A DNA stretch of 34,575 nucleotides from Bacteroidales bacterium (GTDB lineage Bacteria; Bacteroidota; Bacteroidia; Bacteroidales; JAIORY01). The number at the start of each line of letters is the position of its first letter. Within the stretch, counting starts at the first letter, position 1. Location of the stretch: contig DAOVNY010000003.1 of the NCBI GenBank assembly GCA_030630005.1, positions 1-34,575 of the forward strand. The letters are read 5' to 3'. The notes under the pieces were generated by a model. It had not been told where the DNA came from. It worked only from the letters and a program-made list of their open reading frames with translations, and searched no databases. The position numbers were made by a program, and so were the translations under genes. This document shows, in pieces, positions 1,588 through 33,710 of the stretch.

Positions 1588-1620
1588 TCTAAATCTGAAA
1601 TCTAAATTCTTAAATCTAAA
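1588..1620. repeat. Degenerate 7-nt tandem array (TCTAAAT-like)
   Basis: tctaaa tctgaaa tctaaat tcttaaa tctaaa, abutting the MITE-like element. Confidence 0.55.
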
Positions 1621-1741
1621 GGAGGGTTCTAAAAATAGTGAAGTTCGAGGCGCAAGAAATTTTAAAACCGGATTTTACCTTTGTAAATGAGGATTTTAAA
1701 ATTTTGAAGCAACGAAGAAATTTGCATTTTTAGAACCCTCC
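1621..1741. mobile_element. 121-bp MITE-like element with 16-bp terminal inverted repeats and TAAA direct repeats
   Basis: GGAGGGTTCTAAAAAT (1621-1636) and ATTTTTAGAACCCTCC (1726-1741); TAAA at 1617-1620 and 1742-1745; no ORF; internal self-complementary segments. Confidence 0.75.
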
Positions 1742-1746
1742 TAAAA

Positions 1747-3237
1747 TCACAACTTCCATCCTTCCCGATAAGTATGCCTAACATACTCTTCGGCAGCAGG
1801 TTTTGCATCAATTGTATCATATTTAGTATCGAAATGCGGATGTCCGTTGATTACAGTAAATTTGTCGGAAGAAACCACTCTGATCTGATCATCAGCATTA
1901 ATATTTGTAACTCTCATATTTTCTCCATCCCAAAGTAATTTTCTTTTCAGGTCTTGCAAACGAATTGCGAGATTACCCATAACCACCATTTCAGTCAAAG
2001 GACCGGCATAATCAAAATTAGAACTTGGCAATAATCTATTATCAGGACTTTCTTTACAAGCTCTTACCCAATCCATTTCATGACCGCCTTTCCATGCATC
2101 TTTCACTCTACGAATTGTTTCCGGCGGACGTTTATAATCTTTATCAAGTTCTTCGGGAAGCAATACCGGATTTTGACCGTAACATCCACACATTAATTTT
2201 CCTTTTGATCCTACAAAAATAACTCCACCATTTCTGTCACCCAATATCTGTCCGTCTTTTAGTTCTTCCGGTCTTTCGGGTAATAATCCGCCATCGTACC
2301 ATGTTAATTTCACAGCAGGTAATTTTATATTTTTAATAGAATTACGCTTCGGAAACTCATAAATAATTTTTGAGGCATGAGGAGCACTTTCAGTATTTAC
2401 CTGTGTTGAGCTTCCCTGCACACTTATTGGTTTGCCAAGATTCAGGGCTTTAAAAGCCGGATCCATAATATGACAAGCCATATCGCCAAGAGCACCGGTT
2501 CCAAAGTCCCACCATGCACGCCAGTTCCAAGGTGTGTATGAAGGATGATAAGGACGGTATTTTGCAGGTCCTATAAATAAATCCCAGTCTAAAGTAGAAG
2601 GAACCGGAGGAGTTTCTGTTGGTTTTTCCAAACCCTGAGGCCATATCGGACGGTTTGTCCATGCATGGACTTCCTCGATCTCACCAATAGCACCATCCCA
2701 GATCAACTCACAAAGTTGTCGGATATCATCATTAGAGTTTCCCTGATTACCCATCTGAGTGGCTACCTTATATTTTCGGGCAGTTTCGGTTAAGACTCTT
2801 GCCTCATAAACCGAATGAGTTAAAGGTTTCTGAACAAATACATGTTTCCCTCTTCTCATTGCTTCAGCAGCAATAATAGCATGAGTATGATCAGGAGTAG
2901 CAACAACCACAGCATCAATTTGATCACCCATCTGATCAAACATTTTTCTATAATCCTTGAATTTTTTAGCATTAGGATATTTATTAAAAGTCCCGGATGC
3001 ATAATCCCAGTCAACATCACATAAGGCTACAATATTCTGAGAATTCAAATTATTGATATTAGTACCACCAATGCCGCCAACTCCAACGCCGGCAATATTT
3101 AATTTATCGCCGGGTGCAAAAGATCCCAAGCCTCCGATAGAAGCAAAACTTGGAAGAATAGTTAATCCGGCAGCTGCAGTTGCAACATTACCGATAAATT
3201 TCCTCCTTGAAATTTCATTACTATTTTTCTTTTCCAT
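1747..3237 (-). CDS. Gfo/Idh/MocA NAD-dependent oxidoreductase with Tat signal (likely glycoside 3-dehydrogenase type)
   Basis: Start moved to ATG 3237 (MEKKNSNEISRRKF, twin-arginine); GVGGIG, ATPDHTH, QKPL, GALGDMACH motifs. Confidence 0.9.
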   Translation of the reverse strand: MEKKNSNEISRRKFIGNVATAAAGLTILPSFASIGGLGSFAPGDKLNIAGVGVGGIGGTNINNLNSQNIVALCDVDWDYASGTFNKYPNAKKFKDYRKMFDQMGDQIDAVVVATPDHTHAIIAAEAMRRGKHVFVQKPLTHSVYEARVLTETARKYKVATQMGNQGNSNDDIRQLCELIWDGAIGEIEEVHAWTNRPIWPQGLEKPTETPPVPSTLDWDLFIGPAKYRPYHPSYTPWNWRAWWDFGTGALGDMACHIMDPAFKALNLGKPISVQGSSTQVNTESAPHASKIIYEFPKRNSIKNIKLPAVKLTWYDGGLLPERPEELKDGQILGDRNGGVIFVGSKGKLMCGCYGQNPVLLPEELDKDYKRPPETIRRVKDAWKGGHEMDWVRACKESPDNRLLPSSNFDYAGPLTEMVVMGNLAIRLQDLKRKLLWDGENMRVTNINADDQIRVVSSDKFTVINGHPHFDTKYDTIDAKPAAEEYVRHTYREGWKL

Positions 3238-3255
3238 ATTTTTATTTTTATTATA

Positions 3256-3482
3256 AAATGACTGAAATGACTGAAATTTAAAAATATCAATTCTTGGGTT
3301 CACTTCGAAAAGTTAACAAAAAGAAAATGCCACTAAGACACCAAGACTCAAAGAAACACAAAAAAAATCAATTATAAATATTTCTTTCTCCATCACTCCA
3401 TTACTCCATTTATTTCCCATATTTCCCTTATTTCCCTTACGACCAGAGGGAGTCCGTATGGATTCCCAATTTCAAATTTCCA
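3256..3482. repeat. Patchwork of several short tandem arrays (9-, 8-, 8-, 9-, 7-nt units) with a 26-bp embedded hairpin
   Basis: AAATGACTG x2 (3256), CACYAAGA-like x3 (~3331), CTCCATYA x2-3 (3388), ATTTCCCWT x3 (3412), insert 3438-3463. Confidence 0.7.
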
Positions 3483-3499
3483 TTGCAAATTATTACTGA

Positions 3500-4519
3500 T
3501 CAGTTACCAAATGCTTTTTCAATTATTTCTATTGTTCTTGCAGCTTCTTCCGGTTTAACCATCATTTCCTTTCCCTTTTCCAGAACATCATAAACATTAT
3601 GATAAAAACCCTGATATCGCCCTGCTAAAGTTTTAATTTTCTTTTCAGAAATATTTCCGTCTTTTATTGTTTTCAATGAACCATAATATTTTTCAGAGTC
3701 CTTTCCCCAATCTTTCCCTCTTGGGATATTGCCGTTTTTCAAAGCTTCTTCCTGAGGATCAATACCGTATTTTACAAACTCACCATTATTCCCCTTCAAA
3801 ATAAATCTTGGACCTATTTTATCAACCAACATACCAGCCGTTAAAATTACTTTTAATTTTTCATATCTCAAAACCAGTCTGAAATAATCATCCACCTTGC
3901 TTTCTTTTCGTTGAGACTGAATATCTGCCTCAATTTTTTCAGGAAATCCGAATAATGATAATGCCTGATCAATTAAATGAGAACCGAGATCGAATAATAT
4001 TCCACTTCCGGGAAGGTTTTTATCTCTCCATGCATTGTCTTTAAATTTGGGGGCATATCTATCAAAATGAGCTTCGTACTCATACAATCCACCAAGAACA
4101 TTGTTTTCTATTAATTTTTTGATTGTAAGAAAATCTCCATCCCAACGACGGTTTTGATAAACAAATAATTTCAGGTTTTTTTCTTTTGCCAGATCAATTA
4201 GTTGTTTTGCTTCCGCAGAAGTTGGGGTAAACGGCTTTTCGACAACAACGTGTTTTCCTGCCAGCAAGGAGTTTTTCACCATTTCAAAATGAAGAGTATT
4301 TGGAGTAGTGATCACTATCAAATCAATTTCTTTATCATTCAAAAGATCAGAAATATTTCTGACAACAGCTACATAAGGATATATTTTTTGTGAATTATTA
4401 TGTTTTCGTTCAACTACTTTTATAAGTTCAAAATCAGGATTGGCATCAATAAAAGGAGCATGAAAAACCTTCCCCGACAAGCCAAAACCAACTAATCCTA
4501 CTATAATTTTTCTTGACAT
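3500..4519 (-). CDS. Gfo/Idh/MocA oxidoreductase, YdgJ/IolW-like
   Basis: Start moved to ATG 4519; GFGLSGKVFHAP, VVEKPF, YQNRRWDGDF, DLGSHLIDQAL motifs. Confidence 0.88.
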   Translation of the reverse strand: MSRKIIVGLVGFGLSGKVFHAPFIDANPDFELIKVVERKHNNSQKIYPYVAVVRNISDLLNDKEIDLIVITTPNTLHFEMVKNSLLAGKHVVVEKPFTPTSAEAKQLIDLAKEKNLKLFVYQNRRWDGDFLTIKKLIENNVLGGLYEYEAHFDRYAPKFKDNAWRDKNLPGSGILFDLGSHLIDQALSLFGFPEKIEADIQSQRKESKVDDYFRLVLRYEKLKVILTAGMLVDKIGPRFILKGNNGEFVKYGIDPQEEALKNGNIPRGKDWGKDSEKYYGSLKTIKDGNISEKKIKTLAGRYQGFYHNVYDVLEKGKEMMVKPEEAARTIEIIEKAFGN

Positions 4520-4550
4520 TTTATAAAATCTTATGTTTTGCAACTAATAT

Positions 4551-4743
4551 TAGTGCCTAAAGTTTGGAGTGCCTAAAATGCCTAAAGTTATTGGTTATTA
4601 CTAATTAATGTAAAAATGTCAAACATTTTATATCCCTAAATCAAAACAAATTTATTTTCATAGAATAAACCCAGTCAAATTAGTTACTCAGTTTGTATTT
4701 CAAATAACTTTAGGCACTCCAAATTTTAGTTCACTTTAAGTAC
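4551..4743. repeat. Pair of inverted GTGCCTAAA-type tandem arrays bracketing ~110 bp
   Basis: TTTGGAGTGCCTAAA (4563-4577) is the reverse complement of 4709-4723; TGCCTAAAGTTATT (4579-4592) of 4703-4716. Confidence 0.8.
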
Positions 4744-4760
4744 CAATTAAATCCAAAGCT

Positions 4761-5618
4761 TTATTCATTTAACATTTTACTCAAATTCCTATAACTAATT
4801 GAAACACTTTCTAATGGAGGTTTTCGACAAACATCCTGTTCAACAAAAAAGTATTTCATTCCTGATAGTTCTTTGTATTTGAATAACTCCTTAAAATCAA
4901 TTATTCCATTTCCAACTTCCGTAAAAAATCTTTCTTCACTATCTTCCATATCTTTTACATGCCATAGTTCAAATCGTCCGGGATATTTTTTAAAATAGGT
5001 GATCGGATCAAAACCTGCTTTAATTATCCAGTAAAGATCGAGTTGCATTTTAACCAATTCTTCATCAGTTTCTTTTAAAAGAACATCGTAAGGAATTATG
5101 CCTTCAATATTTACAAATTCAAAATCATGATTATGATAAGCAAATTGAACACCGGACTTTTTACATAACTCACCAATTTTATTAAAATCTTCAGCAAGCT
5201 TTTTATAACTGTCTATACTTTTTCTTTTTTCGACAGGCAACCAGGGAAGTACCAGATACTTAATTTCTGATTCACAGGTGTCATCAATTACTTTTTGAGC
5301 ATTATCAAACTCAAAACCTGCATGAAAACTTGGCAGAATCATACCGAGATCATTTACCATTCTTTTAAATTCTTTTGGTTTTAATCCGTAAAATTTACCA
5401 TTTGAATAACCGGCAGCTTCAACAGAATTATAACCAATTTGAGCAAGTTTTTTAAGAGTTCCGTACAGATCATCTTTTATCAAATCTCTGACAGAATAAA
5501 GTTGTAATCCAATCAGTAATTTTTTTGATCCGGGAAATGAACACATTTCAAAAGGAAAGATAATACTTCCTGCTGTTATTGCAGCTATTGACTTAATAAA
5601 GGTTCTTCGAGTTTTCAT
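4761..5618 (-). CDS. Sugar phosphate isomerase/epimerase (xylose isomerase-like TIM barrel), Tat-exported
   Basis: Start moved to ATG 5618 (MKTRRTF); GLQLYSVR, YHNHDFEF, LDLYW, HVKD, FVEQD motifs. Confidence 0.9.
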   Translation of the reverse strand: MKTRRTFIKSIAAITAGSIIFPFEMCSFPGSKKLLIGLQLYSVRDLIKDDLYGTLKKLAQIGYNSVEAAGYSNGKFYGLKPKEFKRMVNDLGMILPSFHAGFEFDNAQKVIDDTCESEIKYLVLPWLPVEKRKSIDSYKKLAEDFNKIGELCKKSGVQFAYHNHDFEFVNIEGIIPYDVLLKETDEELVKMQLDLYWIIKAGFDPITYFKKYPGRFELWHVKDMEDSEERFFTEVGNGIIDFKELFKYKELSGMKYFFVEQDVCRKPPLESVSISYRNLSKMLNE

Positions 5619-5627
5619 AATTATTTG

Positions 5628-5742
5628 AGTTTCGAGTTTTGGGTTTTGGGTTTCGGGTTTCGCCAGACATTTAACTTCCATTACCATTACTCCATTACTC
5701 CATTACTCCATTACTCCATTACTCCATTACTCCATTACTCCA
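5628..5742. repeat. RGTTTYG x5 array followed by CCATTACT x7 perfect array
   Basis: Heptamers 5628-5662; seven exact octamers 5684-5739. Confidence 0.95.
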
Positions 5743-5745
5743 AAT

Positions 5746-7420: not shown

Positions 7421-7933
7421 TTATTTTTTCACTGCCGACTGTTTACTTCCGACTTCCGACTTTTTTTTAAAAATCAATCTATCCATGCCAATAATCTTGC
7501 TTGTCGGAAAAACCAGTAACACAGCAAGAGTAACTAATTCAACAAATATTTTATTTACAATTAGATAATTCCCCTCTGTTGGGAGATTATAATCCAAACC
7601 GGGAAAAGGTGGATGAGACAGATAATACATTGTCAGTAAAACTATTCCTGCTATCTTAGCTATCCTGGCAAGGCAACCCAAAATAAGCCCCAGTCCAATT
7701 GCAATCAATCCATAGATATTCATAATATCAACAACATTAAGAACGCCTTGATCAGCAGCAATTGATTTATAAAAACCAGACATAAAACCCTGAGAATCCA
7801 TCAGGTATCCAAAACTTGACCATGCCGGATCAATCAATTTCACTAATCCTTCATACAAAAAAAGCCAGCCGATAATAACTCTTAATATTACAAGCATACT
7901 TAGCTGGCTTTTTGAATAATTCTTATTTTTCAT
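7421..7933 (-). CDS. DoxX-family membrane protein (thiosulfate:quinone oxidoreductase small-subunit-like)
   Basis: LRVIIGWLFLYEGLVK motif, four hydrophobic segments; C-terminal tail encoded by 7-nt repeats. Confidence 0.85.
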   Translation of the reverse strand: MKNKNYSKSQLSMLVILRVIIGWLFLYEGLVKLIDPAWSSFGYLMDSQGFMSGFYKSIAADQGVLNVVDIMNIYGLIAIGLGLILGCLARIAKIAGIVLLTMYYLSHPPFPGLDYNLPTEGNYLIVNKIFVELVTLAVLLVFPTSKIIGMDRLIFKKKSEVGSKQSAVKK

Positions 7934-7944
7934 ATTTATTTTTT

Positions 7945-7994
7945 AATCTGTGAATCTGTGGCTATTTTTTATATAATTTTTCGCAGTGGACTCA
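7945..7994. repeat. Two orphan element ends: AATCTGTG tandem and a 17-bp TIR-like sequence
   Basis: 7945-7962 matches reverse complement of 15271-15288 (17/18); 7978-7994 matches reverse complement of 27648-27664 (16/17). Confidence 0.7.
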
Positions 7995-15205: not shown

Positions 15206-15375
15206 CATTTTATAAAATGATATTTCCAAATAATTTTGGAATATTTTTATAAAGTTTTTTAACAAAATTTGCCGCAGATTCACAGATTACAAAATTAATC
15301 TTTTTGTGCTATGTTTATGGAATTCCTGTTCTGAATATTTCGTAAGTTGTAGGGGGCTATTTTCTATCATTTCCA

Positions 15376-17712: not shown

Positions 17713-17757
17713 AATTGTTAATTATTAATGGTTAGTTGTTAATGGTTAGTTGTTAAT
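17713..17757. repeat. 7-nt tandem array (AATTGTT/AATGGTT/AGTTGTT x6) downstream of four-helix-bundle gene
   Basis: Fills the whole spacer up to the hsdR start codon. Confidence 0.85.
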
Positions 17758-18115
17758 ACTTGATTAAGTTTAATTTTGTTGTTTTAATAATACTTGTAAT
17801 TAATTTTATCATTTCAATAGCATCAATATTAATACTTTCAAATTGTTCTATACTTAAATAATTAGTTTCTCTTAACAGTTCTAACCAATAAATACTTTCG
17901 TTTATTTCTTTTTGTGCAATTGCCATTTTATGAATAAAATCAGCCTTGCTCTCAGCGTGTTCTGCCTATCTAACCAAAGCACTTACACTTGTACCACTTC
18001 TTAACAACTGTTTTGAAAGAACATATTCTTTCTTTTCTGATTGAATAAATTGATATAGTTTCACAATGCGAATTGCAAATTTAAAACTCTTCTCTTTTAC
18101 AATATTTTTCTTCAT
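17753..18115 (-). pseudogene. Four-helix-bundle protein (TIGR02436/23S rRNA IVP-like) with in-frame TAG at codon 50; absent from ORF track
   Basis: Manual translation MKKNIVKEKSFKFAIRIVKLY...LSKQLLRSGTSVSALVR*AEHAESKADFIHKMAIAQKEINESIYWLELL...; TAG at 17968-17966 where the family has Glu. Confidence 0.9.
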
Positions 18116-18126
18116 CTTAATATCTT

Positions 18127-18200
18127 CATTAACAATTTATAATTAACCATTAATAATTATTCTACTCATTGTCAATTTTCAATTTTCCATTATCAATTAA
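18127..18200. repeat. 7-nt tandem arrays (CATTAAC/AATTAAC and CATTGTC/AATTTTC) upstream of four-helix-bundle gene, inverted relative to 17713-17757
   Basis: 18144-18159 is the exact reverse complement of 17719-17734; second half overlaps the Bro-N 3' end. Confidence 0.85.
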
Positions 18201-19016: not shown

Positions 19017-19035
19017 ATTAATTCCTTTTAAAATT

Positions 19036-19100
19036 ATTCAGTTGTACCCAAATTGGGTACAACTGAATTTTGTAATCTATCTAGGGACAATTTGTCCCTA
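19036..19100. repeat. Two perfect palindromes (16-bp and 9-bp arms, 1-nt centre)
   Basis: ATTCAGTTGTACCCAA-A-TTGGGTACAACTGAAT (19036-19068); TAGGGACAA-T-TTGTCCCTA (19082-19100). Confidence 0.9.
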
Positions 19101-19156
19101 TGTTAAATCTTATATTCTCCACTATACAAAATTTTAAATTCTTAATCAAAACCCAA

Positions 19157-19246
19157 TCAAGAAACTTTTTTATGCCACTCCCCGTAAGCTTCTTTGCCTT
19201 GAAATACTACAAGTTTATTTTGTGGAGCTATATTTTTATTCTTCAT
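19157..19246 (-). pseudogene. Probable 5' relic of a second Bro-N-like gene
   Basis: MKNKNIAPQNKLVVFQGKEAYGEWHKKVS* resembles the neighbour's N-terminus MDKSNKLQLFQEQKIRTHW. Confidence 0.5.
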
Positions 19247-19260
19247 TATTTGATTGTCTG

Positions 19261-20013
19261 TTAAAATATTGCATATTGTTGTTCAATAATTTCAGGATAT
19301 TGTTGCCAAATCTTACCATCTAAAATTTTTCCATTTTGCTTTTTATTTCGTTTTACTTTATCAGCCCCCAAAGTACCCCATTGTTTAAAGAAAAAAGCAA
19401 TATCTTTTTCTTCACATTGCTGTTTTATGTTTAAGACCCAACTTTTTTCCATTGACCTTGCCCTGTTGCCACTTTCTCCACCAACAATTACCCAATCAAT
19501 GTTTTCAAAATTTATTCTTCCCAAATCTTCAAGTAATGGTTCTACCGAAAGAAATAAAACACTTGCTTTTAATTGTCTTAATTTGTCTATCCTTGGCAAA
19601 CCTTCTTTTTTGTTATCAACTGTTACGCCAAGCCAAATATTTTTAGGTATTTCTCTTTGAGACAGATATTGAAACATTCTATCCGCCCTTTTTGTCAGAA
19701 TTTGATAAGTGTGATGCGGTGTTTCTTTAATTACATCAAAAATTTTATTCAAATATTCTTCGGGCATATCTTTATGAAAGATATCACTCATTGAGTTAAC
19801 AAAATAAACAGTTGGTTTTTTTCTTTTAAAAGGGTCATTTAGCCTACTTGGCACAGTATTAAATGTAAAACCATTTTCATAGCCTTCAACTCCCATCGCC
19901 TGTAATCGGATAGCCATTGTTTCAGCATAGCAATTTTTACAGCCTAAACTAATTTTTGTACAACCTGCCGAAGGGTTCCACGTTTGCTCTGTCCATTCTA
20001 TTTTATGTGCCAT
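19261..20013 (-). CDS. DUF5131 / phage Gp37-Gp68 family protein (radical-SAM-like three-Cys motif)
   Basis: Start moved to ATG 20013; IEWTEQTWNP..GCTKISLGCKNCYA, VNSMSDIFH, QILTKR, SVEPLL, GGESG, FFFKQWG. Confidence 0.92.
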   Translation of the reverse strand: MAHKIEWTEQTWNPSAGCTKISLGCKNCYAETMAIRLQAMGVEGYENGFTFNTVPSRLNDPFKRKKPTVYFVNSMSDIFHKDMPEEYLNKIFDVIKETPHHTYQILTKRADRMFQYLSQREIPKNIWLGVTVDNKKEGLPRIDKLRQLKASVLFLSVEPLLEDLGRINFENIDWVIVGGESGNRARSMEKSWVLNIKQQCEEKDIAFFFKQWGTLGADKVKRNKKQNGKILDGKIWQQYPEIIEQQYAIF

Positions 20014-20022
20014 AGTTATCAA

Positions 20023-20646
20023 CTAATAAAATTTATCATTATCCCAATTATCAGGATTATTTTTAATGTATTCTGTAATTGTATTATATGAATTTTCATT
20101 TCGTATTATATGTTCCCAATAATTTCGTTGCCATATTTTTTTATCAAATGGTTTCCAATTTTTTGTTTTTACCCCGCGAATATATTCAACGGTGGTAATG
20201 GATTGAAATGCTCCAACCATTTGACCTAACGTTTTTTTATTTTGAATTTCCGTTGGGGTTTCCGTTGGGGTTTCCGTTGGGGCAATCCCTTGTGGTTGCC
20301 CTTTTTGATTTGGGTCGACCACGAGGGTCGCCCCTACGGTATTTTCGTTTTGGGTGGATGCGTTGTTATTCGGGGAAACGATTTCCAATATGGCGTGAAA
20401 ATGGTTGGGCATTGTAATATATTTGTGTAATTGAACGTTTTTAAATCGTTCGGTTAATTTTAACCATTCGTTATTTATCATTATTCCGGCATCATTCAAA
20501 ATCATTTTGCAGTTTTTAATATTACCAAATAAATGTTCCCTGTTTTGACAAACAATGGTAACAAAATACAATCCTGCCTGCGAATAATCATATCCTTTTA
20601 ATCGGATTGACCTACGATGATGAATATTTGGATTATATTTTGTCAT
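20023..20646 (-). CDS. REP-associated tyrosine transposase (RAYT/TnpA-REP, IS200-like HUH Y1)
   Basis: RRSIRLKGYDYS..GLYFVTI, MPNHFH (HUH), WQRNYWEHIIRNE, YIKNNP. Confidence 0.9.
   Translation of the reverse strand: MTKYNPNIHHRRSIRLKGYDYSQAGLYFVTIVCQNREHLFGNIKNCKMILNDAGIMINNEWLKLTERFKNVQLHKYITMPNHFHAILEIVSPNNNASTQNENTVGATLVVDPNQKGQPQGIAPTETPTETPTEIQNKKTLGQMVGAFQSITTVEYIRGVKTKNWKPFDKKIWQRNYWEHIIRNENSYNTITEYIKNNPDNWDNDKFY
20247..20337. repeat. Inverted REP pair plus 12-bp x3 tandem inside the transposase gene
   Basis: Minus strand GTAGGGGCGACCCTCGTGGTCGACCC (20337-20312); plus strand GTTGGGGCAATCCCTTGTGGTTGCCC (20276-20301); TTTCCGTTGGGG x3 (20247-20282). Confidence 0.85.
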
Positions 20647-20649
20647 AAA

Positions 20650-21858
20650 TTAAAATTCCCCATTAAACGCTTTTTGCAAAACCGACTTTTTTAATTCCCC
20701 CAAATCTACAATTTTTTTCTGATAAACAGCTTCCAATCTTTTGGTTTCGGCTGAAAGAGCATCAAGTTTTTTGACAATGGTTTGTTGTTCGGATAAGGAT
20801 TTTGGAAATGGAATAATAATACTTTTTACTTCGCTATTTGTTACTGCTGGGTAACTTGCTCCTTTTTGAAGTTTCTCCATTTGTTGATTAAACCCAAAAG
20901 TTAAAAGGAAGTAATAAATGAAATTGTTATTCAAAAAATCTTTTGCCCTTAAAACATAATAACCCGTACTACAAACCTGATTATTATATTCTTCTGTAAT
21001 TATTGTAACTCGACTATGTGTTGGGCGAACAGTTGCAAAAATTACATCATTTGTTTTTATAAGTTTTCTTGCTCTACTTGGTGCATCTTTACCTAACAAT
21101 ATAGATGTTTCTTCAATCTGTTTTGTTTCTTTATTAACGCTTGATACATCAAGATAAATAAATTCTTCGTTAGGATTTAATTTTGGGTTTACTGTTTCTG
21201 TTTTTTGAAGGACTTTCCCCAAAGTCTTCTCTTCCCAATCATCTCCTTTATTCTCAAACACCCCTTGCAAATAACTCTCAAAAAGTTCCTTAGAATTTTT
21301 AAGGTTTTGTTCGGCATTGGTTTTTGCCTTGGCTATGGCGGCAAAGGCTTTATCAAGAATGGCTACTATGCGTTTTTGTTCGGAGAGTGGTGGGAGTGGG
21401 ATTTGGATTGCTTCAATTTGAGCCTTATTAATTGAATTAAAAACTGCACCTGTATTACAAACAATCTCATTTTCGTGTTTTAATAAATAATTAAATAGAA
21501 ATTCTTTTTCAATTAATTTACTTGCTCTAATTGCTGCAAGTCCACGACCAATACAAATTCTTTGAGTTGAAAAATTTATTGGACCAACAGGAGCACGAAC
21601 TGACATTAAAATATCGTTTGCTTTTGCTTCTTTAGTTATTTTGGTTGTCCACTTAGTTGGTTCTCCAATGTATTTTTTAGTAAATTCCTTCTTGCCCTGA
21701 TAAAAAGGCAATCCATTTTCTTTTGTATTATAGTATTTTCCCTCTGGTGATTGACCTGCAATTACTTTACAAACCTCCCCCAACTTTTTCATTTCCCAAC
21801 CCTTCTTTTTCAATTGAAAATTATTTTCATTGTCCACTATCAATTGTCCTTTATCCAT
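20650..21858 (-). CDS. hsdS: Type I restriction-modification specificity subunit
   Basis: Start moved to ATG 21858; GWEMKKLGEV, two TRDs, PLPPLSEQKRIV and PKSLSEQQTIV conserved regions. Confidence 0.93.
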   Translation of the reverse strand: MDKGQLIVDNENNFQLKKKGWEMKKLGEVCKVIAGQSPEGKYYNTKENGLPFYQGKKEFTKKYIGEPTKWTTKITKEAKANDILMSVRAPVGPINFSTQRICIGRGLAAIRASKLIEKEFLFNYLLKHENEIVCNTGAVFNSINKAQIEAIQIPLPPLSEQKRIVAILDKAFAAIAKAKTNAEQNLKNSKELFESYLQGVFENKGDDWEEKTLGKVLQKTETVNPKLNPNEEFIYLDVSSVNKETKQIEETSILLGKDAPSRARKLIKTNDVIFATVRPTHSRVTIITEEYNNQVCSTGYYVLRAKDFLNNNFIYYFLLTFGFNQQMEKLQKGASYPAVTNSEVKSIIIPFPKSLSEQQTIVKKLDALSAETKRLEAVYQKKIVDLGELKKSVLQKAFNGEF

Positions 21859-22714
21859 TGTCAATTGATTTAATTTTATCCAAAACCTTAACAGAAGAGA
21901 TATCCATTTTAGAAAAGGCAAACCATTTTTTACCAAGGTCTTTAAGTGAAGCCCCAAAGTGGTATATTTCTTTTTCATCAATAATAAGAAAGCGGTCGTG
22001 AGCATCTTTAAACTTTTTTACTTCTATGGTTTGGTATTGCTCGTTATGTTTCTTTATATCCAAGCTAAATTGTTTTGAGATAGTTTTAGTAAGAATAGTA
22101 AAACTTACGCCATTTTTTCGCTTTGCAAAATGAGTTAAAACTGTATCATCAACATAATTATCTATCAGAATTATAGATTTCTTTGCTGTCCGAAGCAAAT
22201 CGGAAACAAAAGAGTAAGCATCAAATATTTGTCCTTTAAAGAAAACATCTTGCTTAGGCGGTAAACTCGCATTTATTTGTAAATCAATACCATCAACTCT
22301 TTCCATTATGGTATGAACATTATCTTCAATACGGTTCATTCTTTGATTTAAGGAGTAGCCTTTTAATAAATAATCTTTTAGAATTTTATTTGCCCATATA
22401 CGAAATTGCGTACCTTGTTTCGATTTTACTCTATAACCAACAGAAATAATTACATCAAGATTGTAGTGTGCAATTTGTCGTTCAACTTGTCTTTCTCCTT
22501 CATTTTGAACTGTCGCAAAATTTGCGACAGTTGAACTTTTATTAAGTTCTCCCTCGTCAAACACATTATTTATATGCTTTCCAATAGTTTTTATATCTCT
22601 ATCAAACAAAACCGAAATTTGCTGTCTGTTTAGCCAGACAGTTTCGTCTTCTACTTTCACTTCTAATCGTGTTAGAAGCTCCTCTGACTGATATAGTATG
22701 ACTTCATTCTTCAT
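21851..22714 (-). CDS. RhuM-family DNA-binding protein with C-terminal PLD-like extension
   Basis: ETVWLNRQQ, YNLDVIISVGYRVKS..GTQFRIWA; C-terminal IILIDNY and HDRFLIID...GASLKDLG. Confidence 0.85.
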   Translation of the reverse strand: MKNEVILYQSEELLTRLEVKVEDETVWLNRQQISVLFDRDIKTIGKHINNVFDEGELNKSSTVANFATVQNEGERQVERQIAHYNLDVIISVGYRVKSKQGTQFRIWANKILKDYLLKGYSLNQRMNRIEDNVHTIMERVDGIDLQINASLPPKQDVFFKGQIFDAYSFVSDLLRTAKKSIILIDNYVDDTVLTHFAKRKNGVSFTILTKTISKQFSLDIKKHNEQYQTIEVKKFKDAHDRFLIIDEKEIYHFGASLKDLGKKWFAFSKMDISSVKVLDKIKSIDNG

Positions 22715-24201
22715 ATCAAGCTTTTTATATTTTCTAAAATAGTTGCACTTTCTTTATCCAGTTCAGTCATATTTTTCAAAATTTCGGCAGGTTGGCGTAG
22801 TGGTGCTTCTTCGAGCGTATTCGGGTTTTTAGCGGAAAGGTCCATTTCGGCTACGCTCAATGAACTTATATCTACAGTCCAAGAATTTTCGCTTTCCTTT
22901 TGCGTTTTCTGGAACTCAACAAACTCTGCTAAATCATTTTCGTTAAGCGGATTTGTTTTGCCGAGGTTTCTGTCTAAATTCAGTTGGTAAAACCACGTTT
23001 TTTGTGTGGGCTTTCCTTTTTCAAAAAACAAAACTACGGTTTTAACACCTGCACCTGTGAAAGTTCCGCCCGGCAAATCTAAAACGGTGTGCAAATTACA
23101 ACTGTTCAATAATTCTTTACGCAAGGCAATGGAAGCATTGTCGGTATTGCTTAAAAAAGTATTTTTAATTACAACACCTGCTTTTCCACCAGCCTTCAAT
23201 ATTTTAATAAAATGCTGCAAAAACAGACTTGCAGTTTCTCCTGTTTTTATGGGAAAGTTTTGTTGCACTTCGGCACGTTCTTTTCCACCAAAAGGAGGAT
23301 TAGCCAAAATTATATCGTAACGGTTTTTTTCTTGTATATCGGCAAGGTTTTCGGCAAGTGTGTTGGTATGCACAATATTAGGGGCTTCAACACCGTGCAA
23401 AATCATATTCATAATACCAATAATATAGGCAAGCGATTTTTTCTCTTTGCCGTAAAAGGTCTTCTTTTGTAAAGTATCTGTATCGGTAGTAGAAAGAGAC
23501 ACCCTGCTGTGCGTCTTTACATTTTTAAGATATTCAAAAGCTTCCACCAAGAAACCCGCAGAACCAACCGCACCATCATAAATTTTGTTGCCAATTTGGG
23601 GAGCAACCACTTTTACTATGGTTTTAATCAGAGGTCGTGGTGTGTAGTATTCGCCACCGTTTCGTCCTGCATTTCCCATATTTTTGATTTTCCCTTCGTA
23701 CAAGTGGCTCATTTCGTGCTTTTCTTTATGAGTTCTAAAACGAAGCTCGTCAATTAAATTTACAACTTCTCGGAGATTATAACCGCTTTGAATTCTGTTT
23801 TTCAATTCGCTAAAAATCTCGCCAATTTTATATTCTATGGTATTAGCATTTTCAGCATTGGTTTTAAATTTTTTCAGATATTGGAAAAGTTCACCGTTTA
23901 CAAAGTCCACAAGGTCATCGCCTGTTAATGCGTTGTGGTCAATTCTTGTGCTGAGTCTTGTCGAAGTATTTCCGTTTTCTAATTTTGGTGCAGCCCAAGT
24001 AGTCCATTGATATTTTTTGTCAATAATTTTTTCGTAGGTTTTTCCTGAAAGTTCGGCTGCAGTCTGTTTGTCTTTTTCTAAGTCGTCCAAGTATTTCAAA
24101 AACAATACCCAAGAGGTTTGTTCTACATAATCTAATTCACTTCCACATCCTGCGTCTTTGTGGAGTATGTCGTCTATATTTTTAAAAGTCTGTTCAAACA
24201 T
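22711..24201 (-). CDS. hsdM: Type I N6-adenine DNA methyltransferase subunit
   Basis: GEYYTPR, DGAVGSAGFL (motif I), NPPF (motif IV); cotranscribed with hsdS/hsdR. Confidence 0.95.
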   Translation of the reverse strand: MFEQTFKNIDDILHKDAGCGSELDYVEQTSWVLFLKYLDDLEKDKQTAAELSGKTYEKIIDKKYQWTTWAAPKLENGNTSTRLSTRIDHNALTGDDLVDFVNGELFQYLKKFKTNAENANTIEYKIGEIFSELKNRIQSGYNLREVVNLIDELRFRTHKEKHEMSHLYEGKIKNMGNAGRNGGEYYTPRPLIKTIVKVVAPQIGNKIYDGAVGSAGFLVEAFEYLKNVKTHSRVSLSTTDTDTLQKKTFYGKEKKSLAYIIGIMNMILHGVEAPNIVHTNTLAENLADIQEKNRYDIILANPPFGGKERAEVQQNFPIKTGETASLFLQHFIKILKAGGKAGVVIKNTFLSNTDNASIALRKELLNSCNLHTVLDLPGGTFTGAGVKTVVLFFEKGKPTQKTWFYQLNLDRNLGKTNPLNENDLAEFVEFQKTQKESENSWTVDISSLSVAEMDLSAKNPNTLEEAPLRQPAEILKNMTELDKESATILENIKSLI

Positions 24202-27482: not shown

Positions 27483-27647
27483 ATTTATTTCTGTGAGAAA
27501 TTCAAAAAAACAAAACCAAAAATAATAAAATTTCTGTTATGTAAACGAAAATATTTAATAAAAATTACTTGATAAATTATTAATTGGGGAATCCATGTAA
27601 ACGTATTGTGGTCGTATGAGTATTGGAGTGGTGGAGTGGTGGAGTGG

Positions 27648-27847
27648 TGAGTCCACTCCGAAAAGTGCTTTGGGCTAAAGCCCCTTATGTTTGTTTAGAT
27701 GTTTATATCCACGTCCTAAAGAACGTGGCAATTCAAAAGTTATTGCAATTCAATGAATTACCCTGCCATTTATGGCAGGGGTAAAAAAAATTATACAGAA
27801 GAAAATGGACTTTAGTCCATAATAAATTGCTTTTCGGAGTGACTTCA
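27648..27847. mobile_element. 200-bp MITE/REPIN-like element with imperfect 18-bp TIRs and four mirror-arranged hairpins
   Basis: TGAGTCCACTCCGAAAAG ... CTTTTCGGAGTGACTTCA (12-bp perfect core); hairpins at 27672, 27709 (TAAA loops) and 27761, 27805 (TTTA loops). Confidence 0.7.
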
Positions 27848-27914
27848 TTATTCCAACCATCCTCCAACAATTACCAACAATTACAACTAATTACAATAAA
27901 TTACAACAAACCAC

Positions 27915-31678: not shown

Positions 31679-31743
31679 ATAAATTTGTTTCTGGTTGCTT
31701 GTTTCTGGCTGATTGATAATTTAGGTTAAATCAGTTTTTGCAT

Positions 31744-31779
31744 AAATCCTCCAGATTTTAAAAATCTGGAGGATTTCGA
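31744..31779. repeat. 33-bp perfect palindrome (REP-like), copy 1
   Basis: AAATCCTCCAGATTTT-A-AAAATCTGGAGGATTT followed by CGA. Confidence 0.9.
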
Positions 31780-31797
31780 TAAAAAATTACTTTTTTA

Positions 31798-31827: not shown

Positions 31828-31855
31828 ATCTTTTTGAAATAAAATTATTAAACTG

Positions 31856-32287
31856 ATGCCTAAAAAACTTTTTCCGATTATTTTATTAACACTTGGACTG
31901 ATATTATTTTCGGGCTGTTACAAAAGGGCTGAATTAGCTTCGATATATAAAGTTGATGTAAACTTTGAAATAACAGTTTTAGATAACCTTAGTAATCCGG
32001 TTATAGGTGAATTTGTTTATTATCGTATGTTAAAATATACAGGCTACAGTAATACTGCTTCAGATATTAATGAAGATAAGGATCTTACCGATAATGAAGG
32101 TAAGATATATCTCACATACACATGTATCTTAAATCCGACAGAAATTGTTCGTTTATATTGCATGCTTAACGGATTCGATGATCCAAATATAGGACTCGAA
32201 ACAATATTTTACGACGATGTGGAAGCAGCAAGTTTCGATGGAGAATATGCGTTAATTGATAGAAAAATTACTTTATATAAGGATTAG
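31856..32287 (+). CDS. Hypothetical lipoprotein
   Basis: Lipobox LFSGC; beta-rich, possible Ig-like fold; own promoter element. Confidence 0.7.
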   Translation: MPKKLFPIILLTLGLILFSGCYKRAELASIYKVDVNFEITVLDNLSNPVIGEFVYYRMLKYTGYSNTASDINEDKDLTDNEGKIYLTYTCILNPTEIVRLYCMLNGFDDPNIGLETIFYDDVEAASFDGEYALIDRKITLYKD

Positions 32288-32332
32288 TATAAAATACAGA
32301 AATAGCAGCGAATGCGCAAATAACTGTAAAAC

Positions 32333-32368
32333 AAATCCTCCAGATTTTTAAAATCTGGAGGATTTCGA
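32333..32368. repeat. 33-bp perfect palindrome (REP-like), copy 2
   Basis: AAATCCTCCAGATTTT-T-AAAATCTGGAGGATTT followed by CGA; differs from copy 1 only at the central base. Confidence 0.9.
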
Positions 32369-32410
32369 CAATTCAATTACAATTAATTTTTTCTCTATAC
32401 CCTTATATCT

Positions 32411-33499
32411 TTACCCTTTATAGAACGGCAACTTAACAACTTTAGCTTTAAGAAGTTTTTTTCTTACTCTGATATAGATTTCAGTATCAAATTTAGTATA
32501 TCCTTTGTTGATGTATCCCATTCCGATACCTATTTTAAGCATTGGAGACATTGTTCCTGAAGTTACCTCTCCTATTGTATTTCCTTCTTCATCACAAATT
32601 TCGTAATGTTGTCTTGGAATTCCTTTGTCAATCATTTCGAAAGCTCTCAGCCGGCGACTTACTCCTTCTTCTTTTTGTTTGGCAAAAATTTCACGATCAA
32701 TAAAATCATTTCCATCGGTAAATTTTGTTATCCAACCCAAACCTGCTTCAATCGGTGAAGTAGTATCGTTAATATCGTTTCCGTAAAGACAAAAACCGGA
32801 TTCAAGTCTGAGTGTATCACGTGCAGCAAGTCCGATTGGTTTTATTCCATATTCTTTTCCGGCTTCAAGTACTGCATTATATATTTTTTCGGCATCTTTA
32901 TTTTCCATATAAATCTCACATCCACCTGAACCTGTATATCCTGTAGTTGACAATAAAATATTTTCAACTCCCGCAAAAGTGAGTTTTTTGAAAGTATAAT
33001 AAGTCATGTCCGTGATATTTTCTCCGGTAAGACTTTGCATTGCCTGTAGTGCCATTGGTCCCTGAACAGCTATCTGAGCATAATCATCAGACGCATTTGT
33101 AAGTTCCGCACCATTTACATTTTGCTTGTTGCACCAATCCCAGTCTTTGTCGATATTTGCAGCATTTACAACAAGTAAATATAATTCTTCACTAAATCTG
33201 TAAACCAAAAGATCATCAACTATTCCACCTTTTCCATTGGGGAAACAAGTATATTGGACTTTTCCGTTAACAAGACTGGCAACATCATTTGTAGTAACTC
33301 TTTGCACAAATTCAAAAGCCTTAGTACCTCTTACCCAAAATTCGCCCATGTGCGAAACATCAAAAACTCCTACTCCTTTTCGTACTGTCTCGTGTTCGAT
33401 ATTAATTCCTTCGAACTGAACCGGCATATTATAACCTGCAAACGAAACTATTTTAGCTCCCATTTTTTCATGAATACTTGTTAAAGCTGTATTTTTCAT
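32411..33499 (-). CDS. gcvT: Glycine cleavage system aminomethyltransferase T
   Basis: [38 protein letters not shown]. Confidence 0.97.
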
Positions 33500-33537
33500 T
33501 ATTTTATTTTTTTTATTGAAGATGATTTTTCAGAGCA

Positions 33538-33545
33538 CAAAAGTA
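33538..33545 (-). promoter_or_regulatory. -7 element (TACTTTTG) upstream of gcvT
   Basis: TAnnTTTG ~40 bp upstream of start. Confidence 0.6.
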
Positions 33546-33575
33546 TAAAATACTTCGATATTTTAAAAAATATTT

Positions 33576-33710
33576 AGTTTTAAGTTTTGGGTTTCCCATC
33601 CATACGGACTTCCTTTGGTCGTACGGGCTAACTTCGTGTCGCAGGTTTCGGGTTTTGGGTTTCGGGTTTTGGGTTCAACTCAAAATTTCAAACTCGAAAC
33701 TCAAAACCAA
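33576..33710. repeat. Back-to-back inverted 7-nt arrays (RGTTTYG then AACTCRA) interrupted by a small insert
   Basis: Heptamers 33576-33596 and 33644-33676, complementary array 33677-33710; insert contains 26-bp repeat at 33598-33623. Confidence 0.85.

Follow-up and report, generated by a model that had tools for sequence, protein, structure and literature searches.

The window analysed here is a 34,575-nucleotide stretch of DNA from the genome of an uncultured Bacteroidales bacterium, which we compared with the sister genomes G001 and G002 (genes 78–93% identical). It holds the following features, unstranded unless a strand is given:

1588–1620: tandem array of TCTAAAT, ~4–5 copies, adjoining a MITE-like element
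1620–1742: MITE-like element of 123 bp whose terminal inverted repeat, AGGAGGGTTCTAAAAAT, is perfect over 17 bp
3238–3507: strain-specific block with arrays at 3256–3277 and 3388–3439, the 23-nt hairpin core on the minus strand at 3439–3461 and part of a further element
4542–4753: MITE-like element of ~210 bp, its ends inverted sub-terminal repeats of GTGCCTAAAGTT type (pair 4551/4705)
5618–5745: two adjacent non-complementary arrays, GTTTYGG at 5624–5662 and 7.4 copies of CCATTACT at 5677–5742
7430–7462: short ACTTCCG array reaching into the DoxX-like ORF 7421–7933 at its 3′ end
7940–7966, plus strand: copy of a dispersed element of 18 nt, AATCTGTGAATCTGTGGC, made of two heptamer units and a cap; the DoxX-like start codon follows 11 nt downstream
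15269–15291, minus strand: second copy of the 18-nt element, in the opposite orientation
17712–17757, minus strand: 3′ arm of the S23p cassette, an array rich in C/A on the coding strand that extends as far as the hsdR start codon
17795–18121, minus strand: S23p gene (PF05635/TIGR02436, Avd-like four-helix bundle) with one in-frame TAG
18128–18159, minus strand: 5′ arm of the cassette, G/T-rich on the coding strand, starting 2 nt past the stop codon of the upstream gene
20023–20646, minus strand: RAYT-like (REP-associated tyrosine transposase) gene in a type I R-M island (NF047646, E = 3e-17, below the curated cut-off)
21829–21862: array of 14-nt period in the RhuM-like/hsdS gene overlap (ORFs 20650–22005 and 21851–22714), not a spacer
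27587–27649, plus strand: degenerate hairpin core followed by a threefold TGGAGTGG array (Tandem Repeats Finder and sequence)
27648–27848: 201-bp element A, with terminal inverted repeat GTCCACTCCGAAAAG around four REP-like hairpins
27864–27909: CAATTACAAC-type array, beginning right after the guaA stop codon
31743–31777: REP-type palindrome (AAATCCTCCAGATTT..AAATCTGGAGGATTT), its 14-mers present up to 36 times genome-wide
32332–32366: second copy of this palindrome, bracketing ORF 31856–32287 with the first
33596–33642, plus strand: composite of two small hairpin cores (CCATACGGACTTCCTTTGGTCGT and CGGGCTAACTTCGTGTCG) within a GGGTTTY array
33644–33711, plus strand: hairpin without a gene, formed by a GGTTTYG array and, immediately after it, its wobble-complement, an array of AACTCAA type

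A first-pass annotation had listed short tandem arrays in spacers across the window. Most were recovered by Tandem Repeats Finder, which placed arrays at 1588–1620, 3256–3277, 3388–3439, 5624–5662, 5677–5742, 7445–7462, 7945–7960, 17712–17757, 18128–18159, 18168–18198, 21829–21862, 27624–27649, 27864–27909, 33644–33675 and 33677–33711. Those at 18168–18198 (within the 3′ end of ORF 18162–19016) and 21829–21862 are not in spacers, and sites 4551/4705, 15271 and 33576 gave no row in this program, each showing two to three degenerate units by eye. In total the window contains 34 arrays, 17 of them inside its 4,294 intergenic bases, against means of 13.7 (maximum 24) and 3.0 (maximum 5) in 20 dinucleotide shuffles. 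Genome-wide we counted 366 arrays, 310 intergenic and 56 coding, with 12–16 intergenic arrays in three shuffles. Their density is ~1 per kb in spacers, roughly 20 times that of shuffles, versus 0.03 per kb within genes. We conclude that the arrays are genuine and far above chance, in the window and genome-wide.

The genome uses 193 distinct units with periods of 7–10 nt. Unit identity varies between loci, and, as had been noted, some units recur at distant sites (GGTTTYG at 5629 and 33644; the CCATTACT type at 3388 and 5684 and, inverted, at 27624). Arrays are about equally frequent (18–27%) in co-directional, convergent and divergent spacers, with similar rates in all four spacer types, so operon junctions, proposed earlier as the target, are no specific target. 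Rather than one window-wide system, the intergenic repeats form at least four classes:

Class 1: STRR/LSSR-type tandem arrays of 7–10-nt units, with copy number varying between species
Class 2: a cassette of the rRNA intervening-sequence type, in which a PF05635 (S23p) gene lies between inverted arrays
Class 3: the MITE/REP-like elements 1620–1742, 4542–4753 and 27648–27848, each filled or empty in relatives
Class 4: a hairpin core of 23 nt (CCATACGGAC..GTCGT), found nested within arrays and within other copies of the core

STRR repeats reportedly go back to work by Mazel in 1990.

The S23p gene of the window matches PF05635 (E = 1e-24) and, with its stop codon read as X, TIGR02436 (E = 8e-26), and the in-frame TAG marks it as a decaying copy. 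Its arms are complementary, with a perfect 16-bp outer stem read from the sequence, and the cassette takes up exactly the spacer between the neighbouring stop and start codons; at full length it folds only modestly above shuffles (z = −2.6 and −2.9). Two of the three PF05635 genes in this genome lie between inverted arrays. The third, on contig C24, has no clearly complementary flanks and is the copy conserved in all three species. Across the order, PF05635 was found in 32 of 41 genomes, and 14 of 28 sampled loci placed the gene between inverted arrays, flanks being scored as paired when their pairing was stronger than the 5th percentile for mismatched flanks; the remaining 14 had no clearly complementary flanks. 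The arms are heptamer arrays whose unit differs per genome, with the G-rich arm first in 13 of the 14 armed cassettes. The predicted enrichment of particular cargo genes between paired arrays is thus borne out for PF05635 but not for GIY-YIG genes, since none of four has heptamer arms.

Related S23p copies at different loci have related arms. A 71%-identical copy at a different G002 locus has arms related to those of the window cassette, and parts of one G001 cassette (5′ arm with gene start; gene end with 3′ arm) recur at 79–95% identity on at least six contigs of genome G026, in which the genes flanking that cassette are 85–88% identical. The arms therefore move together with the gene. This counts against a rival reading in which the arrays are plain long-unit microsatellites grown in place by slippage and serve as preferred insertion targets of S23p genes and other small elements rather than being relics, inverted pairs forming by template switching at small palindromes. 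The large number of different units and the predominance of unpaired arrays fit that reading, as does the guaA-downstream array, which all three species have at the orthologous site, with about 5, 5 and 12 units (counted by eye).

Comparison of orthologous junctions bears on the same question. We retrieved 20 S23p loci from G001 and G002 and found the corresponding position in this genome for 11 of them. Two represent a single locus filled in all three species, and the other nine fall on eight junctions that lack the gene here, seven of which were inspected:

C129: gene-less hairpin with the same unit as the sister cassette
C192: minimal palindrome, AGTCTTCAGACT
C105 and C48: a single array
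C114: S23p gene stub of ~40 nt
C80 and C222: clean, nothing left

We conclude that filled, decayed and empty states of the S23p cassette exist at orthologous junctions of sister species; the earlier proposal of such states holds for this cassette, not for one common system. The stub at C114 indicates that the gene was lost in place, and the clean junctions C80 and C222 that whole cassettes including their arms, not the gene alone, are gained or lost. Both observations count against the microsatellite reading. At C192 the gene is missing in three of four genomes, two of which carry same-unit hairpins, that of the third species being long and gene-less. Here a single gain by G002 into an older hairpin, the shortest history and the one that suits the microsatellite reading, fits as well as two losses, and three species root the comparison weakly. 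Overall we regard growth in place with preferential insertion as rather unlikely.

The MITE/REP-like elements have their own distribution. Counting their own copies, the elements at 1620–1742, 4542–4753 and 27648–27848 have nine, fourteen and thirteen blastn matches in the genome, with fold z-scores of −4.7 and −5.8, −5.2 and −3.1, and −6.8 and −5.8, respectively. Copies of the first in G001 and G002 are 93–98% identical. As had been predicted, the other two have empty alleles in relatives: the 4542–4753 site is empty in G001 and holds an internally deleted copy in G002, with further copies at other loci, and a contig from run X9 has 25 letters where the window has 4522–4767; element A is absent in G001, and in G002 the same ends enclose another interior. 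Matches to element A are 72–100% identical, several lying within TGGAGTAA-type arrays. The 23-nt core is present in 4 of 121 genomes and is associated with arrays in 11 of 42 cases versus 13% at random, only about twofold. One copy in this genome lies inside another core that lacks such an insertion in G002, and direct 6-mers are shared by the flanks in 20 of 41 cases versus 27% in the control. Host arrays continue on both sides of element A and of the core; this placement within arrays and the shared 6-mers are also compatible with arrays acting as insertion targets.

Could the hairpins and small cores instead be REP/REPIN-type elements moved by the RAYT transposases of the genome, one of which is encoded in the window? 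The genome has three PF01797 matches, and the window gene matches the RAYT model; its translation carries 'NHFH' and 'RNYWEH' stretches, which we take to be the HUH motif and the catalytic-Tyr motif. On contig C49 the 36-copy REP palindrome of 31743/32332 lies on either side of a RAYT-like gene, and hairpins resembling those of element A precede a RAYT gene on C93. However, no REPs flank the RAYT gene of the window, which showed no link to arrays, and 62 of the 121 genomes of the order have homologues of it against 4 with the 23-nt core, the closest homologues being in genomes without that core. S23p arms also differ from cassette to cassette, a poor fit to a sequence-specific hairpin-binding transposase. 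We consider this origin quite improbable.

Other window loci also vary between relatives. The block at 3238–3507 is absent from G001 and G002, which have spacers of a few tens of bases, and contigs from three runs have 53 letters where the block has 269; region 3238–3499 gave no fold signal (z = +0.6 on both strands). Spacers orthologous to 5618–5745 (fold z = −3.0 on the plus strand, +0.3 on the minus strand) are 228–300 bp long in the sister genomes and differ in content. G002 lacks the stretch 7430–7462 and, at the spot of 27587–27649, has arrays without the core. The gene-less hairpin 33644–33711 (minimum free energy −32.2 kcal/mol, z = −7.3 on the plus strand, versus −22.7, z = −4.1 on the minus strand) is missing from the related place in G001; judging by what is seen at other loci, it may derive from an S23p cassette.

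The second array of each window pair had been described as the reverse complement of the first. This applies to only three of those pairs, 4551/4705, 17712/18128 and 33644/33677, and not to 27624/27864 (TGGAGTGG versus CCAACAATTA), 3256/3388–3439 or 5629/5684. Among 158 neighbouring array pairs genome-wide, 19 were inverted, 2 direct and 136 unrelated in unit; the expectation for random array pairs is about 1.8%. Consecutive arrays ran G-rich then C-rich in 49 cases versus 8 in the reverse order, and those at 5624–5662 and 5677–5742 follow the G-then-C order on the plus strand. Array orientation is thus not random. In the spacer half adjoining the preceding gene's stop codon, arrays were G-rich on the sense strand of that gene at ratios of 110:55 in co-directional and 37:19 in convergent spacers (sums over tabulated array polarity counts).

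This bias near stop codons is what a regulatory-type role at the transcripts of flanking genes might produce, and a regulatory role has been proposed for heptamer repeats before start codons (MacGregor 2015, in the available text of PMC4679880). The 18-nt element AATCTGTGAATCTGTGGC, a 14-mer of which has 43 exact genome-wide matches, often as inverted pairs, frequently lies just upstream of start codons, and the hairpin at 33640–33715 is much stabler on the strand of the downstream gene. Yet array-bearing spacers showed no folding advantage of the sense over the antisense strand: among those with at least two arrays the sense fold was more stable in 20 and the antisense fold in 21, which gives no hint that the sense RNA is under selection. 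Array rates are alike in all spacer types, units change by locus, and strains with ~95–99% identical flanks, like sister species, differ by the presence of entire blocks. We find a regulatory explanation very doubtful.

The reading we prefer, with a probability of about 0.6, is a layered landscape of slippage arrays, a mobile S23p cassette with decaying remnants, and unrelated small elements. Arrays of the STRR/LSSR kind would lengthen and shorten by replication slippage. The cassette would be a small selfish element, built like ORF-bearing 23S rRNA intervening sequences, that probably moves as one piece, arms included, and inserts between genes. Later it may lose the S23p gene to leave a gene-less heptamer hairpin, which would then erode until one array, a minimal palindrome or nothing is left; the window cassette 17712–18159 would have had its gene just broken by a stop codon. 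Unrelated MITE/REP-like elements and the 23-nt core would insert into or beside arrays. In transcripts the two arms are predicted to form a long double-stranded stem that RNase III may cut, by analogy with rRNA intervening sequences, so that a cassette wedged between genes would do little harm. RNase III and Rho genes are both present in the genome, and, more speculatively, the G-rich-first order may keep the first-made arm from being a C-rich Rho loading site. Most arrays are single or lie beside unrelated ones, so cassette decay directly explains only a minority. A gene cassette that comes and goes among close relatives, leaving empty hairpins, may nonetheless explain part of the old puzzle of bacterial 7-base repeats.

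The first-pass annotation knew of no described mechanism, but closely similar systems have been published, namely 23S rRNA intervening sequences, STRR/LSSR, the heptamer stems of Nostoc introns, and REP/MITE elements. In Nostoc punctiforme, Elhai and colleagues are said to have described in 2008 small dispersed repeats (SDR) of 21–27 nt with hairpin potential, nested in one another and in heptamer repeats. The 23-nt core nested within another core is similar, but its phylum and sequence are different and its array association is only about twofold. Multi-copy palindromes beside RAYT-like genes recall REP/REPIN systems (as far as the accessible text of PMC3116915 describes them), and elements of 120–210 bp with terminal inverted repeats, filled or empty in sister species, recall bacterial MITEs (likewise, PMC3184786); here, however, the MITE-like elements and heptamer arms are tied to no cognate transposase, and one MITE-like element has ends of short tandem units.

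In the P6b stem-loop of the Nostoc tRNA-Leu group I intron, as described in the available part of PMC4476775, the stem consists of 7-nt repeats (TDNGATT or NNTGAGT), changes length by whole repeats on both sides and accepts side insertions. Units of this shape, such as GATTTAT and TTGAGTG, are present here too, but that stem belongs to the self-splicing intron of one gene, whereas our hairpins are scattered through intergenic spacers and may enclose an ORF. STRR and long simple-sequence repeats, with units of 5–11 nt (Mrazek 2007, as described in PMC4679880; Rehm 2015, PMC4692102), occur in cyanobacteria, Xanthomonas, Beggiatoaceae and a few Bacteroidetes. Like the arrays here they are intergenic and head-to-tail, mostly of 7 nt, many per genome and variable in copy number. 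One or a few units dominate each genome there, in contrast to 193 here, and the accessible portions of these reports mention neither inverted pairing with G-then-C order nor a link to S23p.

ORF-bearing intervening sequences, such as the S23p-bearing one of Coxiella burnetii (described in the available text of PMC4990558), lie in helix 25 or 45 of 23S rRNA and have arms of unique sequence, whereas the cassette here lies between protein-coding genes and has tandem 7-nt arrays as arms. RNase III excises the Coxiella sequence at its terminal inverted repeats, a step that would apply here by analogy. Both have a PF05635 gene enclosed by terminal inverted repeats that pair into a long stem, a sporadic distribution and an ORF prone to decay, and the Coxiella sequence has been discussed as a selfish or formerly mobile element (PMC4990558).

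Short tandem arrays are abundant in this genome, and the window shares in that abundance. Tandem Repeats Finder (TRF) returned rows at most of the sites where the first-pass annotation had described arrays; at 4551/4705, 15271 and 33576 it gave none, and two to three degenerate units are visible there by eye. The window holds 34 arrays, 17 of them within its 4,294 intergenic bases, compared with means of 13.7 in total and 3.0 intergenic in 20 dinucleotide shuffles. A genome-wide scan with a stricter cut (score of at least 40, at least 2.8 copies, period 6-16) found 366 arrays, 310 intergenic and 56 coding, at densities of 1.02 per kb of intergenic versus 0.029 per kb of coding sequence; three genome shuffles gave 12-16 intergenic arrays. 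Periods of 7 (n = 110), 8 (n = 99), 9 (n = 45) and 10 (n = 31) dominate, and 193 distinct units occur. We conclude from these counts that the feature is real but genome-wide, and that the window is not special.

Across the genome, neighbouring arrays are not oriented at random. Among 158 neighbouring pairs (no more than 700 bp apart), 19 were inverted, 2 direct, 1 both and 136 unrelated, and random pairs of arrays were inverted in 1.8% of draws. The proposal that the second array of a window pair is the reverse complement of the first held for 4551/4705, 17712/18128 and 33644/33677 but not for 27624/27864, 3256/3388-3439 or 5629/5684. Consecutive arrays within one spacer ran from G-rich to C-rich 49 times versus 8 times in the opposite order (binomial p = 3e-8); a further 11 pairs were G-rich twice, 10 were C-rich twice and 12 included an array without skew. 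Since an inverted pair is identical on either strand, the G-then-C order belongs to the spacer as such and to neither strand in particular. Within the spacer half adjoining the preceding gene's stop codon, arrays were G-rich on that gene's sense strand in 110 versus 55 cases in co-directional spacers and in 37 versus 19 in convergent ones (sums made by hand from tabulated data); arrays near start codons had no strand-composition bias. Targeting of gene junctions in operons, an element of the original proposal, finds no support, because co-directional spacers show no special frequency of arrays (97 of 366 and 57 of 276, compared with 36 of 131 convergent and 32 of 180 divergent). Folding of 953 spacers revealed no asymmetry between sense and antisense strands, and in spacers with at least two arrays the sense strand was the more stable in 20 and the antisense strand in 21.

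One gene family is associated with inverted arrays, in the S23p cassette, a PF05635 four-helix-bundle gene between inverted tandem arrays. The window copy lies in a restriction-modification island, between a Bro-N-domain gene and hsdR.

Features of the island and of the window S23p cassette
15376-24201, type I restriction-modification island carrying hsdR, the S23p cassette, Bro-N, DUF5131, a RAYT-like gene, hsdS, RhuM and hsdM
17712-17757, 3' arm of the cassette, ending at the hsdR start codon
17795-18121, minus strand, S23p gene (PF05635, E = 1e-24; TIGR02436, E = 8e-26) with one in-frame TAG
18128-18159, 5' arm, starting 2 nt past the stop codon of the upstream gene

The surrounding draft genome (2.26 Mb, 231 contigs, 32% G+C, 85% complete) contributes Bacteroidota-like genes to the window, with SusE/F, 3-keto-disaccharide hydrolases and GFO/IDH/MocA oxidoreductases, most of the window genes being on the minus strand. 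The island is absent from both sister species, with ~48 bp in its place in G001 and ~1.3 kb in G002. An Rfam search of the window (E up to 1) gave no match at any array and no rRNA match, its sub-threshold matches falling at 665-786, a hairpin between convergent genes; a search of the window for tRNA and tmRNA found none. Read from the sequence, the arms of the cassette have a perfect 16-bp outer stem in common, and the fold of the whole cassette reached z values of only -2.6 and -2.9. A contig of sequencing run X2 joins 17712 to 19084, which can be taken only as a hint of an allele that lacks both the cassette and the upstream gene.

S23p genes are sporadic among close relatives. The search for further PF05635 remnants in this genome returned just three matches at E ≤ 0.001; the second copy (contig C44) lies between GATTTAT-type and AAATCTA-type arrays and the third (C24) has no arms. 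The two sister genomes have 22 and 12 matches, and the family is present in 32 of 41 genomes of the order. An enrichment of four-helix-bundle cargo had been predicted, and it was found: S23p genes sit between complementary flanks that pair better than the 5th percentile of mismatched flank pairs at 14 of 28 loci across the order (30 loci, one per genome, after exclusion of the window locus and of another whose flank was short). The arms across the order are tandem arrays whose unit differs by genome, with the G-rich arm upstream in 13 of 14.

Orthologous junctions differ in their content between the species. We fetched 20 regions around S23p matches from G001 and G002 and placed their flanks on this genome. 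Eleven could be placed, the other nine having flanks without a match or contig ends. Two of the eleven correspond to the arm-less locus on C24, where each of the three species has the gene; the remaining nine define eight junctions without an S23p gene in this genome.

Junctions that carry S23p in a sister genome and lack it here
C129 near 240: here a gene-less hairpin of GTAATTR units; G002, a cassette of the same unit with far longer arms; G001, ~200 bp without the gene
C192: here a minimal palindrome, AGTCTTCAGACT; G002, a cassette whose arms have the unit CAGTCNN; G001, a long hairpin of that unit without the gene; G026 (another genome of the order), unrelated sequence
C105 near 2705 (relatives' loci L082, L097): here a single array; S23p gene in G001 and in G002, with differing arms
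C48: here a single array; G002, a cassette
C114: here a ~40-nt stub of the 5' end of the gene beside arrays; G001, a cassette
C80: here a clean junction; G002, the gene without arms
C222: clean here and in G002; G001, a cassette; G026, a gene-less hairpin of another unit
C129 near 8100: here no S23p gene; G001, the gene; G002, matched by one flank only

The S23p proteins of G001 and G002 at the C105 junction have no BLASTP similarity yet both match PF05635, so the two genes are not simple orthologues, and the junction may be a repeated landing site. The arms of the window copy are related to those of a 71%-identical copy at a different locus of G002. Two stretches of the G001 cassette that occupies the C222 site (5' arm with gene start, gene end with 3' arm) recur on at least six G026 contigs at 79-95% identity, and the genes flanking this site are just 85-88% identical between G001 and G026. 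These related arms at other loci, together with the G026 matches, indicate that the arms travel with the gene. Taken together, the comparisons favour a cassette that travels whole and then sheds its gene and decays. Single events may have run in either direction, as at C192, where a single gain into a pre-existing hairpin and two losses are equally short histories. In a separate observation, a G002 cassette (L084, contig C35) is flanked by a direct duplication of at least 23 bp, comprising a small hairpin and the leader of the downstream gene; the S23p gene is thus preceded by the same leader as its host gene.

Filled, decayed and empty states had been attributed to one small-cassette system. 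The states are borne out for the S23p cassette and for MITE-like elements; the single system is not, as several distinct repeat classes separate. GIY-YIG genes, which we also considered as cargo of heptamer arrays, form a different type of cassette.

Small GIY-YIG genes just downstream of tRNA genes
C181:1946-2218
C39:145-408
C123:1732-2016
C175:6544-6765

None of the four has heptamer arms, and we rejected this candidate cargo. A tRNA 3' end with its terminator hairpin instead flanks the gene on either side as a direct repeat, at C181, at C39 and less clearly at C123, which makes two cases and perhaps a third.

Three further elements of the window are MITE-like.

MITE-like elements of the window
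1620-1742, element with a perfect 17-bp terminal inverted repeat; 9 blastn hits including itself
4542-4753, element of ~210 bp whose two ends are the 4551/4705 pair; 14 blastn hits including itself
27648-27848, element A, the supposed 200-bp cargo, bounded by a terminal inverted repeat of its own and containing four REP-like hairpins; 13 blastn hits genome-wide including itself

Fold z values of the three ranged from -4.7 to -6.8. The site of the 4542-4753 element is empty in G001 and holds an internally deleted copy in G002, with copies elsewhere in both; a contig of run X9 has 25 letters in its place. Short-sided contig joints at 4589-4721, which may derive from other copies, were left unused. 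Copies of the 1620-1742 element in the sister genomes are 93-98% identical, and the flanks of copies of this type are mostly T-rich followed by TTA, with no clear target-site duplication seen. Several copies of element A lie within TGGAGTAA-type arrays that continue on either side; the element is absent in G001, and in G002 its ends enclose a different interior. The block at 3238-3507, made up of arrays, a 23-nt core and part of another element, gave no fold signal (z = +0.6). Both sister genomes lack it and have only a short spacer there, and in contigs of three runs, each from a different study, 53 letters stand where the block has 269, between near-identical flanks. The block is a recent patchwork, not a paired structure.

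The window also holds small palindromes and hairpins.

Small dispersed elements and the RAYT-like gene of the window
3439-3461 and 33600-33622, 23-nt core CCATACGGACT..GTCGT, a small dispersed hairpin motif, with a degenerate copy near 27590
7940-7966 (plus) and 15269-15291 (minus), 18-nt element AATCTGTGAATCTGTGGC, with 43 exact hits genome-wide
20023-20646, minus strand, RAYT-like gene between the DUF5131 gene and hsdS in the restriction-modification island
31743-31777 and 32332-32366, REP palindromes whose 14-mers occur up to 36 times genome-wide

The window's RAYT-like gene, which adds to three PF01797 matches in the genome, has no flanking REPs. It has no Pfam match at E = 0.001, and NCBIfam NF047646 matches it at E = 3e-17, below that family's cut-off. 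Its translation contains 'NHFH' and 'RNYWEH' stretches, which we take to be the HUH and catalytic-Tyr motifs, and a central PTETPTETPTE repeat. The two REP palindromes flank an open reading frame (31856-32287, 143 aa) whose N-terminal stretch looks hydrophobic by eye and whose product matches no family; this palindrome also flanks the RAYT-like gene on C49 and occurs in G001, G002 and G026.

The pattern of the 23-nt core has 12 matches here, 15 in G002, 10 in G026 and 3 in G056, another genome of the order; none of the remaining 117 of the order's 121 genomes has a match, and a reversed control matched nowhere. On C39, a consensus core of 23-24 nt is inserted inside a reversed core that the G002 alignment shows uninterrupted. 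At one site a double core is common to this genome and G002, and G001 has a short proto-array. Of 42 cores, 11 have a TRF array no more than 40 nt away, versus 13% of random intergenic positions, and core flanks have direct 6-mers in common in 20 of 41 cases versus 27% in the control; the link between core and arrays is modest. A tie between the core and the window's RAYT-like gene was rejected, as the core occurs in 4 of 121 genomes and RAYT homologues in 62 of 121, the closest of them in genomes without the core. Copies of the highly dispersed 18-nt element AATCTGTGAATCTGTGGC are frequently paired in inverted orientation with 10-20 nt between them, and frequently stand ~10 nt before a start codon. 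A rearrangement involving both window copies is suggested by run X2, in whose contigs 15289 or 15304 is joined to 7945.

Other arrays behave as slipping repeats. One of CAATTACAAC type (27864-27909) begins directly after the guaA stop codon and is found at this position in all three congeneric species, with ~5, 5 and 12 units by eye. Elsewhere, the DoxX-like open reading frame terminates within an ACTTCCG array (7421-7462); G002 lacks this stretch, and the array seems to have replaced the original 3' end of the gene. An array of CTGATAA units at C19:8389 is a rotation of TAACTGA and is interrupted by a small core of a second type (CCATACGGGCTAACTTCGTGTCG). The TAACTGA repeat, described by MacGregor (PMC4679880), is known from Beggiatoaceae, cyanobacteria and a few Bacteroidetes.

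The anatomy, the enrichment, the polarity, the turnover at orthologous sites and the movement of arms with the gene are observations; for the mechanism behind them we can make proposals. Slippage and template switching at quasi-palindromes are established mutational processes, and the arrays would grow by the first and keep both arms alike by the second. In the transcript the arms would pair, and RNase III, whose gene is present in this genome, would cut the stem so that the flanking messages survive. This part draws on an rRNA precedent, the S23p-bearing intervening sequence of Coxiella, which RNase III cuts within the terminal inverted repeats (PMC4990558). More speculatively, placing the G-rich arm first might leave no C-rich single-stranded RNA open to Rho, whose gene is also present, before the stem closes.

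A broader reading goes further: a large share of unexplained bacterial heptamer repeats would be arms and relics of one widespread selfish cassette, the S23p/IVS (rRNA intervening sequence) element, which would spread via an RNA stage. We consider it unlikely as a whole, at roughly one chance in ten. On this reading RNase III would free the stem-bounded RNA, the Avd-like S23p protein would recruit a reverse transcriptase, the role that Avd has in diversity-generating retroelements, and the copy would return to the genome between genes; what lets it reside in operons without triggering Rho would be the signature order of its arms, G then C. The literature searched contained no paper linking S23p genes outside rRNA with inverted heptamer arrays and none giving the G-then-C order rule.

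Heptamer repeats (STRR, LSSR) have long been puzzling, as have rRNA intervening sequences, and no explanation of either is generally accepted. At a single junction, three sister species have a gene-bearing cassette, a hairpin of its unit without the gene, and a minimal palindrome, one state each, which makes a proposed life cycle of arrival, gene loss and erosion testable and points to experiments on how such an element might persist harmlessly inside an operon. For annotation, array-bearing spacers should not be taken by default as promoters or regulatory sites; they are fast-changing points, useful for strain typing.

Each layer has published relatives, namely S23p-bearing rRNA intervening sequences, STRR/LSSR arrays, REP/RAYT, MITEs and the Nostoc stem. 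The window cassette resembles the intervening sequences in its PF05635/TIGR02436 reading frame, in terminal inverted repeats that could pair into a stem enclosing it and in its sporadic presence among close relatives, but it does not lie in 23S rRNA (helix 25 or 45). The 23-nt core resembles the small dispersed repeats of Nostoc: Elhai in 2008 reportedly described hairpin units of ~21-27 nt that nest in themselves and prefer heptamer arrays, and the core is likewise a self-nesting hairpin. The MITE-like elements share with MITEs their terminal inverted repeats, lack of coding capacity and many copies, and have filled and empty sites in relatives (4542-4753, 27648-27848). The palindrome at 31743/32332 is REP/REPIN-like in flanking the RAYT-like gene on C49, whereas the heptamer arms are not, as their sequence changes from cassette to cassette (published REP/RAYT elements, PMC3116915; MITEs, PMC3184786). 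The Nostoc tRNA-Leu intron offers a heptamer-built P6b stem (PMC4476775). Finally, STRR and long simple-sequence repeats consist of head-to-tail units of 5-11 nt, are enriched between genes and vary in copy number among relatives (Mrazek 2007, as summarised in PMC4679880; Rehm 2015); the arrays here, mostly of periods 7-10, show the same enrichment, and the one downstream of guaA differs in copy number at its orthologous site.
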